Shown piece by piece: positions 2,705 to 4,833 of a stretch of 50,849 nt of DNA. How positions within the stretch are numbered: the first letter of the stretch is position 1; each line of letters opens with the position of its first letter. Source of the DNA: Escherichia phage BabyEgg. The position numbers and the translations under genes were made by a program. The notes beneath the pieces are model-generated. The model was not told where the DNA came from, did no database searches, and saw nothing but the letters and a program-made list of their open reading frames with translations. The stretch lies in the sequence record PP925846.1; one strand, given 5' to 3'.

Positions 2705-3244
2705 ATGAAAAAATACACTTTCGAACTATGGGGCAAGAAATACGAATTAATGACCAGCAAGCCGATTGTTATCGTTGATCTGGATGGTACGCTATCGGAC
2801 GGATCGCATCGTTTGCACTTGCTGCCAACCGAAAACTTGCACCTTACGGAATCGTGGAGCGAATTTAACAGAGCAGCCGCCGGAGATTCACCGATTAAAA
2901 GCACGATAGCGGTTATTAACGGTTTATGGGTATCAGGATTCGCCGTCATTATCCTGACCGGACGCAGCGACGAAGTGCGCTATGAAACATGCAAATGGTT
3001 GAATGAGAACGGAGTGAAGTTTGACGAAATCATCATGCGCCGCCAGGAGGACAACCGAAAGGATACGGTTATTAAAGAAGAAGCCTTGCGCGCTATTGGC
3101 CTGGACAATATTGTTTGCGCCTTTGACGATTCGCCGAACGTTGTTAAGCACTTCCGCAGCCTGGGAATCACAACCTATCAGGTCACGGAATACGACAAGC
3201 CACACGCTCACCTGCAATCTCACGGCGTGGAGTGTTTAAAATGA
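2705..3244 (+). CDS. HAD-superfamily phosphatase (polynucleotide 3'-phosphatase / nucleotidase-like)
   Basis: HAD motif I VIVDLDGTLSDG (DxDGT), motif II ILTGR, C-terminal K...CAFDD acid cluster. Confidence 0.7.
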   Translation: MKKYTFELWGKKYELMTSKPIVIVDLDGTLSDGSHRLHLLPTENLHLTESWSEFNRAAAGDSPIKSTIAVINGLWVSGFAVIILTGRSDEVRYETCKWLNENGVKFDEIIMRRQEDNRKDTVIKEEALRAIGLDNIVCAFDDSPNVVKHFRSLGITTYQVTEYDKPHAHLQSHGVECLK

Positions 3245-3402
3245 CTTGGTTGCTTTTAATCTTTGTCACAAGTTACAACTCCGCAGCTATTGAGTCGCAG
3301 GAGTTCCACGGCGAATCAAGATGCCAGGAGGCGCGAAAGCAAGTTATTCTCCACATGTCAGATAGTGGGAAGGATGTAACAGCGTTATGCGTTCGTAAAT
3401 AG
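3241..3402 (+). CDS. small protein with N-terminal hydrophobic segment (53 aa)
   Basis: below the ORF-track cutoff; ATGA overlap with the HAD gene; stop TAG lies inside a 22-bp motif copy. Confidence 0.35.
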   Translation: MTWLLLIFVTSYNSAAIESQEFHGESRCQEARKQVILHMSDSGKDVTALCVRK

Positions 3403-3418
3403 CACTTTTTGCAAAAAC
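3397..3418 (+). repeat. 22-bp motif copy (AAATAGCACTTTTTGCAAAAAC)
   Basis: embeds TAG stop of the 53-codon ORF; TATAGT downstream. Confidence 0.75.
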
Positions 3419-3473
3419 AGATTATCGGGCTTGCGGTATAGTAAGCCCATCAACAACGAAAGAGGAAAACATC

Positions 3474-3773
3474 ATGTTGGTTCGTAACGCGATTTATAAA
3501 TTCACAAACGAGATGGGGGTTCACCTTTACCACGTAAACCATCAAGGCCACATCTCAATCGCGATGTATCGCGACGCTCGCGGGAAGTGCAGACCTTCTC
3601 TGCGTGGCAGAATTTCACCTGCGTTCTTCATGTTTAGATGGTATGCAACGGAACAAATCAACCATAACCACTGGTATAAAGTATTGGTTGCAGGAGGCCG
3701 AATTGTTGCCAGCTACGTAGTCGATCCGCGCAAACTAACAAGTCGCCAGCTTCGCAAAATGGCGCGCAAGTGA
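3474..3773 (+). CDS. hypothetical protein
   Basis: RBS gaaagaggaaaacatc before ATG; no recognisable motif. Confidence 0.5.
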   Translation: MLVRNAIYKFTNEMGVHLYHVNHQGHISIAMYRDARGKCRPSLRGRISPAFFMFRWYATEQINHNHWYKVLVAGGRIVASYVVDPRKLTSRQLRKMARK

Positions 3774-3785
3774 GAGAGGAAACAG

Positions 3786-3980
3786 ATGTATAAACTTCCA
3801 TCAATGCATCCATTGCAGGAAAAAGCAGTTAACTACTTGCGCGACCTGGCAGACAAGATCGAGAATGGCGAGGCATTCATAGAGCGAGTCGAGGCACTAA
3901 AAACCGTTGTTGATTTCGGTTGCTCAAGGGAAGAAATCAGCATTCATGTTGTTACAGCAGACGAGGAGACGAAGAAATGA
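3786..3980 (+). CDS. hypothetical protein
   Basis: RBS gagaggaaacag before ATG. Confidence 0.45.
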   Translation: MYKLPSMHPLQEKAVNYLRDLADKIENGEAFIERVEALKTVVDFGCSREEISIHVVTADEETKK

Positions 3981-4246
3981 CACGCAAAATTGAAATATTC
4001 CAGGCCATAGACAGAATCGACATGAGGGATTCACTATTCGCTATTGAGTCCATTGATGGCGAAGACGTCGCCTACAACGTAGAGCTGGATGAATACGGCT
4101 TCGACTGTGTGCGCAAAAAGTTTGCAGATAAAATTGCTATGCAAGGCCGATGCTTGCATAAAGACTCAAGCATAGAGCCTAGACGAAGCGACATGATTAA
4201 TCCAAAACTTGTTGAGACTATTGCTTTTGTGGAGAGCAGAAAATGA
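3977..4246 (+). CDS. hypothetical protein (89 aa)
   Basis: ATGA overlap with the upstream stop; start chosen at MTRKIEIF. Confidence 0.45.
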   Translation: MTRKIEIFQAIDRIDMRDSLFAIESIDGEDVAYNVELDEYGFDCVRKKFADKIAMQGRCLHKDSSIEPRRSDMINPKLVETIAFVESRK

Positions 4247-4833
4247 AAAGAGACATCATTATCCTGAATGGGCCACCTGGAGTGGGAAAGGACACCATTG
4301 CGGCATACCTTACCGGACACCGATACCCAGCAGTTAAGGCATCATTCAAACAGCCAATGTTCGATATTGCGTTCTCCATGCTTGGTGTGTACCGATACGA
4401 TGAATTTATGGACTTGTACAACGACCGGGAACAGAAAGAAAAGCCTCAAGTGATATTGCAGGGAAAATCACCGCGCCAGTTCATGATCTGGATTAGCGAG
4501 GAGGTAATGAAGCCAGCATTTGGGGAACAGTATTTCGGCTGGAGAATGGTTGAGCAGATTCACGAAATGTACCGCGACCTTGCAATCATCGTAACAGACG
4601 GCGGCTTTCCAGAAGAAATCAAGCCACTGATTAAAGCAGGTCACAAAGTGCACATTTGCCGACTGCATCGCGAGGGGTACACGTTCGATGGCGACTCGCG
4701 AAACTATATCGACATGGGCGACTATCATCACCGCCTCAAGCATTACGATTTCACGTTGCACGATGGCGATCCAGAAAAGACGGTAGAGGAAATAATCGAA
4801 ACCGTGCAGTGGTATTTCACAAAAATCAAATAG
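4243..4833 (+). CDS. P-loop nucleotide/nucleoside kinase
   Basis: Walker A ILNGPPGVGKDT near the N-terminus, in a protein of kinase size (196 aa); ATGA overlap with upstream gene; stop TAG in motif. Confidence 0.6.
   Translation: MKRDIIILNGPPGVGKDTIAAYLTGHRYPAVKASFKQPMFDIAFSMLGVYRYDEFMDLYNDREQKEKPQVILQGKSPRQFMIWISEEVMKPAFGEQYFGWRMVEQIHEMYRDLAIIVTDGGFPEEIKPLIKAGHKVHICRLHREGYTFDGDSRNYIDMGDYHHRLKHYDFTLHDGDPEKTVEEIIETVQWYFTKIK

Follow-up and report, generated by a model that had tools for sequence, protein, structure and literature searches.

The phosphatase of T4 Pnkp (PseT) is 3'- and 2'-specific in its characterised activities, and besides RNA ends it also acts on the mononucleotide 3'-dTMP (evidence cited in PMC3592404). 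Among the T1-like phages, T1 and TLS break down the host chromosome and reuse its nucleotides, a process whose responsible genes had not been identified according to the TLS authors, and the two genes with which we are concerned here are already listed in that literature (PMC11447400). A 2026 paper noted that these two genes often stand together after a DNA repair exonuclease in many Drexlerviridae genera and proposed that they boost the nucleotide supply (PMC13164509). Here we consider the pair in Escherichia phage BabyEgg (sequence record PP925846.1), whose 50,849-nucleotide (nt) stretch was analysed as a whole and is called the window below. The pair consists of a HAD phosphatase gene at 2705–3244 and a P-loop kinase gene at 4243–4833, both on the plus strand. 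We find that the two genes are functionally linked, and we hold, with about even confidence, that their products constitute a conserved two-enzyme phage module for salvage of deoxynucleotides.

An earlier note, made from the letters of this DNA alone, had read the first gene as a HAD phosphatase with a DxDGT motif, and the open reading frame (ORF) is indeed there, encoding a stand-alone protein of 179 amino acids (aa) with DLDGT at residues 25–29. The protein matches Pfam HAD_PNKP (PF25109) at 76 bits, against a cut-off of 27.6, and PHROG 415 at E 2.4e-67. Compared with structures, a profile of 42 family sequences matched Capnocytophaga Pnkp1 (E 8.8e-25) and T4 Pnk (E 4e-18), and the next structure, belonging to another HAD family, followed at E 3.7e-4; the closest fold among solved structures is that of the Pnkp phosphatase type. 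In HMMER alignments, D25, D27, R36, T85, R87, D120, K124, D141 and D142 fall on T4 Pnkp D165, D167, R176, S211, R213, D254, K258, D277 and D278, respectively. Motif I, D25-L-D27-G-T29, aligns to T4 D165-V-D167-G-T169, the phosphate-contacting Ser/Thr and Lys and the Mg-binding Asp pair are represented by T85, K124, D141 and D142, and every T4 Pnkp phosphatase residue that was mapped is kept. Across the family (n = 42), D25, K124 and D142 are invariant, and D27, G28 and T29 are conserved in at least 90% of members. The predicted catalytic residues are D25 as the nucleophile and D27 as the acid/base, together with T29, R36, T85, R87, D120, K124, D141 and D142. Their T4 counterparts include R176, R213, D254 and D277, which we take to be essential phosphatase residues. 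The roles of T4 D165, D167, S211, K258 and D278 have been given by Das and Shuman (PMC3592404). Because the window protein has no kinase domain, the common GenBank label ‘polynucleotide kinase’ carried by this gene is a misnomer.

An exhaustive search with the HAD family returned 8,846 cluster representatives at E <=0.001; the best 150 of these 8,846 clusters are mostly stand-alone proteins of 140–210 aa, and a few of the 150 are laid out like T4 Pnkp, an N-terminal Pnk kinase being followed by a C-terminal HAD domain. Several homologs from related phages differ in length (P0122, P0123, P0135 and P0149, 236–237 aa; P0138, 264 aa; P0154, 206 aa). Many near-identical HAD proteins of related phages are extended at the C-terminus by a module of ~57 aa (ITKRARFVGSKD...DGDFVNA), and some homologs also have a Cys-rich insert (CEGEHC...CLRC) that is zinc ribbon-like. 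The window protein ends before the C-terminal module (compare 3200–3244). We considered the 236–237 aa homologs as read-through fusions with the downstream small ORF (3232–3402) and rejected this, the extra 57 aa being an unrelated module that is absent here.

The second gene encodes a protein of 196 aa with GPPGVGKDT at residues 10–18, again in agreement with what had been noted before. For neither gene is the family assignment a product of chance. It matches PHROG 139 (‘dNMP kinase’, for deoxynucleoside monophosphate kinase) at E 9.6e-51, no Pfam or NCBIfam model matched it above its cut-off, and searches of the PDB by sequence, whether with the single sequence or with a 41-sequence profile, gave P-loop matches only. 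Since these searches of Pfam, NCBIfam and the PDB saw nothing of the kinase beyond its P-loop, fold comparison was needed, and the best structural match was the T4 gp1-type fold (PDB 1DEK), with the two-domain arrangement and the GxxGxGKDT P-loop both present. The kinase family profile aligned to T5 Dnk with an hhalign probability of 95% (E 3.4e-8; BLASTP 2e-6), to T4 gp1 with 78% probability over 73 columns, and to the Pnk-type kinase domain over the 27-column P-loop region only. The acceptor motif of Pnk consists of D35, the general base, and R38 after strand beta-2 (PMC2831316). The combination of these two residues with R126 is not found in the kinase family, where the acceptor motif has no conserved counterpart. 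The comparison of T4 Pnk with dNMP kinases that the earlier note had called for places the kinase with gp1/Dnk and the HAD protein with the Pnkp type.

Residues of the kinase were mapped in an alignment of 48 family members with T4 gp1 and T5 Dnk, taking the functional residues of T4 gp1 from Table 2 of PMC10653934. Besides the GKDT P-loop, T4 R68, R132, M135, D175, E181, R197 and D204 are kept as R62, R78, M81, D119, E125, R140 and D151. The residues invariant in the family include K36, R62, R78, E86, K90, D119, G121, F122, E125, R140, D151, S152 and R153. The four ligands of the dNMP phosphate in T4 gp1 are K37, R68, R132 and R177, of which R68 and R132 have their invariant counterparts in R62 and R78. 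A DGGF motif containing the invariant G121 occupies the position where T4 and T5 have D-x-R, and on this alignment we class the kinase as a distinct ‘DGGF’ subfamily within the gp1/Dnk fold family.

Conserved gene order, translational coupling and gene fusions all tie the two genes together functionally. The HAD_PNKP gene is found upstream in 73 of 84 kinase-bearing loci, and in all 73 the two genes share a strand and keep this order. The spacing varies from direct adjacency to 2.2 kb, with ~19 loci having 35 nt or fewer between the aligned segments; the overlap between the two genes is 4 nt in Klebsiella phage Snyder and 8 nt in the Autographiviridae phage phiAS7, and they are adjacent also in Erwinia phage S2 and on one further 45-kb contig. 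Natural fusions form three clusters (P0255, P0391 and P0262), with the HAD domain N-terminal and the kinase C-terminal, which diverge down to 37% mutual identity. Cluster P0255, present on three contigs of which the longest is 60.7 kb, is 50% identical to the window HAD protein (E 1e-47) and 44% identical to the window kinase (E 2e-47). As the pair is so often adjacent or overlapping elsewhere, the 1-kb gap in the window seems to have arisen later, when small ORFs were inserted. We add two observations on individual loci: in phiAS7 a metallophosphoesterase gene occupies the position upstream of the pair, and on a 45.8-kb contig (locus L085, 7929–8606) a kinase homolog is split into two ORFs covering profile positions 1–74 and 76–188, with no HAD_PNKP gene within 8 kb upstream, which may mean that the module is decaying or that the sequence contains an error.

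BabyEgg is a T1-like coliphage that is placed in Drexlerviridae, Tempevirinae, Warwickvirus; its HAD-kinase region is 98% identical to that of Escherichia phage BEBK14 and 97% to that of phage MatMar, both with records of ~51 kb, about the length of the window. Its gene content was judged from the MatMar annotation and from a Pfam scan of the larger non-structural ORFs of the window, which agree. The replication/recombination set comprises a PDDEXK exonuclease, Erf, SSB, a primase, two helicase-type proteins and two DNA methylases, and neither source contains a DNA polymerase or a ribonucleotide reductase. No ligase domain, RNA or DNA, was found in the non-structural window ORFs of at least 180 aa, nor is a ligase present in the MatMar annotation, so the earlier remark that no RNA ligase is evident is upheld.

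How might the two enzymes work together? T1-like phages encode neither a DNA polymerase nor a ribonucleotide reductase, and the degraded host chromosome would supply the material for their DNA. In this scheme 5'-dNMPs would be phosphorylated by the kinase to deoxynucleoside diphosphates, which the host Ndk would then convert to triphosphates. The HAD protein, as a kinase-less phosphatase of T4 Pnkp type acting by an aspartyl-phosphate mechanism with Asp25 as the nucleophile, would remove 3'-phosphates from breakdown products, namely 3'-dNMPs, 3',5'-bisphosphates and 3'-phosphorylated ends, and the dephosphorylated products would then be degraded further or returned to the pool. A 3'-specific phosphatase fits the fusion to a 5'-directed kinase, because a 5'-nucleotidase in the same polypeptide would create a futile cycle. 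We infer the substrates, and the participation of both enzymes in one pathway, from the family and fold assignments, the conservation of catalytic residues, the linkage and the fusions. The alternative in the earlier note, that a dNMP kinase and a nucleotidase act on nucleotide pools, thus emerges as a better reading than a polynucleotide kinase-phosphatase, and its interpretation overall is supported in part.

The surroundings of the homologs in more distant phages bear on this scenario. In Chaseviridae the kinase gene lies between those for DNA ligase and dUTPase, and in Vibrio phage phi-A318 it also stands beside a DNA ligase gene; a 111-aa gene upstream of the phi-A318 kinase was considered as a truncated HAD gene and rejected, being DUF7768. 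In Klebsiella phage Seu621 (Vequintavirinae; MT939253; locus L093, 3998–5198) the kinase homolog shares 8 nt with a downstream gene for a 200-aa ‘HAD-like protein’, which is followed by thymidylate synthase (thyA) and ribonucleotide reductase (nrdA). Because neither the HAD_PNKP profile nor a Pfam family matched it, this HAD-like gene was rejected as a member of the same HAD family; Seu621 would thus hold a second, apparently independent pairing, in the opposite order. The T4-like Escherichia phage vB_Eco_SAP (OZ034687; locus L096, 4998–5474) has a stand-alone HAD_PNKP protein of 158 aa, 46% identical to that of the window, whose gene overlaps the nrdB stop codon in a td-nrdA-nrdB cluster, and it also has canonical pseT and RNA ligase genes a few kb away. 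Since the stand-alone HAD gene and pseT/RNA ligase occur in one phage, the stand-alone clade is no substitute for Pnkp. This coexistence, together with the dUTPase, thyA and nrd neighbourhoods, tips the balance from RNA or DNA end healing towards deoxynucleotide salvage.

Several points weigh against deoxynucleotide salvage by a dedicated pair. The kinase occurs without the HAD gene in 11 of the 84 loci, with Chaseviridae, EK010 and some Drexlerviridae among such cases, and the HAD gene is present in 3,114 phage records versus 1,467 for the kinase. The count of 73 of 84 is inflated by shared descent, as most linked loci come from one phage family, the T1-like phages. The kinase lacks two of the four residues that bind the dNMP phosphate in T4 gp1, K37 being replaced by F40 and R177 by the invariant G121; with these counterparts gone the acceptor could differ from a 5'-dNMP, and the invariant K36, K90 and R153 might compensate for the loss. 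The members of the HAD clade that are fused to true Pnk-type kinases (P0301, P0317 and P0366) hint at an end-healing ancestry. We found no source of 3'-phosphorylated deoxynucleotides for T1 infection, and no published assay for any stand-alone HAD protein of this clade or for any kinase of the DGGF subfamily.

Some of these points feed directly into other explanations. The pair might be a split, order-inverted Pnkp for end healing, in which the HAD protein clears 3'-phosphates or 2',3'-cyclic phosphates and the Dnk-fold kinase, a different P-loop kinase in the place of the Pnk domain, phosphorylates 5'-OH ends of DNA or RNA, leaving the healed ends to be sealed by a host ligase. The true Pnkp type of the HAD protein agrees with this, as does a pairing that looks obligate and comes with translational coupling and single-polypeptide fusions, as in Pnkp; the Pnk-type fusions of close HAD relatives suggest a swapped kinase partner, and the family-wide loss of the T4 R177/K37 ligands allows an acceptor other than a dNMP. 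Kinase-DNA ligase adjacency in Chaseviridae and phi-A318 was at first counted on the same side and then discounted, because the ligase of T7 is also near a proven nucleotide kinase, gp1.7. The gp1/Dnk fold of the kinase with its missing Pnk motif, the genome with no ligase found in it and the coexistence of the stand-alone HAD gene with a true pseT speak against end healing, the main rival, which we regard as unlikely. We are equally doubtful of the broader proposition that the HAD protein and the DGGF kinase, bicistronic or fused, are an unrecognised order-inverted Pnkp analogue in which a dNMP-kinase fold has replaced Pnk and which turns 3'-phosphate/5'-OH into 3'-OH/5'-phosphate, for example by shifting the phosphate of a 3'-dNMP to the 5' position or by healing nicked DNA for the host ligase.

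The two proteins could also have unrelated roles, the kinase being a dNMP kinase and the HAD protein acting on another phospho-substrate such as damaged DNA ends or a molecule of host signalling or defence, and be neighbours merely by inherited synteny within a DNA-metabolism or early block. That each gene is found alone, that four unrelated ORFs separate the two in the window and that most linkage data come from one family would all be accommodated. The same order and strand in all 73 linked loci would be harder to accommodate, as would the recurrence of the pairing in Autographiviridae (phiAS7) with overlapping stop and start codons, the joining of both domains in three fusion clusters and the coupling of a different HAD-like gene to the kinase in Seu621, and we consider simple synteny improbable. 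Finally, the HAD protein might be a 5'-nucleotidase that cuts back or skews the dNMP pool, in a role like that of the T5 5'-deoxyribonucleotidase, and that opposes or assists the kinase in setting pool ratios. Class B and class C acid phosphatases come next after the PNKP phosphatases in fold and family, and some of them, including AphA, hydrolyse both 5'- and 3'-nucleotides; in addition, the stand-alone homolog of vB_Eco_SAP adjoins nrdB. A fusion of such an enzyme to a 5'-dNMP kinase, however, would run a futile cycle, and R176 and R213 of T4 Pnkp, an enzyme whose characterised activities are directed at 3' and 2' positions (PMC3592404), are matched by R36 and R87; we regard this possibility as very unlikely. 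Deoxynucleotide salvage, with a 3'-phosphatase and a 5'-directed kinase, is the reading that we favour over these others.

The earlier description of ~1 kb between the two genes with four small ORFs in it is correct: there are exactly four, all on the same strand and all annotated in MatMar too. The first (3241–3402) encodes 53 aa with a hydrophobic N-terminus from the ATG at 3241, corresponds to a 162-nt coding sequence in MatMar and matches PHROG 5579 (unknown function). The second (3474–3773; 99 aa) matches PHROG 8382 (unknown function) at E 7.4e-18; the third (3786–3980) encodes 64 aa, and the fourth (3977–4246) encodes 89 aa and overlaps at both ends through ATGA, with the upstream ORF and with the kinase start. 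Such stop/start overlaps (ATGA) occur at 3241, where the HAD stop codon overlaps the start of the next ORF, at 3977 and at 4243. Directly after the kinase, a terminator-like G+C-rich hairpin of 8 pairs, 6 of them G-C, lies at 4849–4867 on the plus strand. It was picked up by a consensus scan that found 3 such sites versus 3.0 expected from shuffles, overall no better than chance; the hairpin is likely the end of the transcription unit, as weak evidence by itself. A scan for sigma-70-like sites found 2 versus 7.0 in shuffles and is uninformative on internal promoters. The block from HAD to kinase would fit one tightly packed transcription unit, an operon, a suggestion that we base on the packing of the genes and not on the terminator scan.

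Around the pair, the window shows a mosaic of conservation. The segment 2219–3232, containing the HAD gene and the ORFs just upstream, is 92–94% identical across many Drexlerviridae genera, and in the same genomes the small ORFs between HAD and kinase (3233–4240) are replaced or diverged. The ‘DNA repair exonuclease’ gene that precedes the pair in many other Drexlerviridae (L004, 2345–3475; L087, 9340–10500) is located in the window at 41532–42650 (+); Pfam detects no nuclease domain in its product, the sole match being a weak one at the N-terminus to helix-turn-helix / sigma-70 region 4. Farther upstream, the ORF at 828–2024 (+) encodes 398 aa with three copies of a ~100-aa repeat (I.[FY]PITF...G......T..D.....); three stretches of it match PHROG 7116 (unknown function), at E 8.3e-85. 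In addition, 20 unannotated ‘Campylobacter phage’ records (A16a, A14a, A136 and others), with C. jejuni as the stated host, show ~80–83% nucleotide identity to the HAD-kinase region of this T1-like coliphage; their accessions include MG065636, MG065638, MG065641, MG065649, MG065665, MG065681 and MG065687, and most of those listed are 47–50 kb. As these records look T1-like, their stated host may be an error, or contamination of the lysates could account for them.

T1-like phages rank with the most common coliphages, yet the route from host chromosome to phage DNA in them is not understood; the HAD-kinase pair offers a concrete candidate for part of this route. About 3,000 phage records carry the kinase-less HAD gene, usually mislabelled ‘polynucleotide kinase’, and the partner kinase represents a gp1/Dnk-fold subfamily with an altered acceptor site. 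A Pnkp analogue with an exchanged kinase, should the pair prove to be one after all, would neatly exemplify non-orthologous domain replacement and might be a source of useful end-modifying enzymes.

Compared with the described systems, the window HAD protein is of the same type as the C-terminal 3'-phosphatase domain of T4 Pnkp and of Capnocytophaga Pnkp1, from which it differs, in the model, by an extra N-terminal beta-hairpin (residues 1–16); its cap segment contains a family-invariant W51 and a nearly invariant F54, both of which Pnkp1 lacks in the alignment. T4 Pnkp is a single polypeptide in which the kinase precedes the phosphatase, and it has an RNA ligase partner, whereas the window has separate genes with the phosphatase first and no such ligase among the ORFs scanned; the rare HAD-kinase fusions, too, have the phosphatase first, unlike T4 Pnkp. 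With T4 gp1 and T5 Dnk (PHROG 139; PDB 1DEK) the window kinase shares the unusual GKDT P-loop, and its homologs occur in nucleotide-metabolism neighbourhoods. T1, TLS, KanT1 and other Drexlerviridae have the same two genes, annotated as ‘polynucleotide kinase’ and ‘dNMP kinase / ATP-binding protein’, and the nearest records are 96–98% identical over the HAD-kinase region. In BabyEgg the pair belongs to a run of small ORFs that share its strand and lie upstream of the terminase genes, and in Warwickvirus and relatives this position, with a split by ~1 kb of small ORFs, sets the pair apart from that in many other Drexlerviridae genera. Both protein families, the near-identical annotated genes in sequenced phages and the occurrence of the pair were known before; what is added here is the evidence for functional coupling, the correction of the ‘polynucleotide kinase’ label and the definition of the DGGF kinase subfamily.

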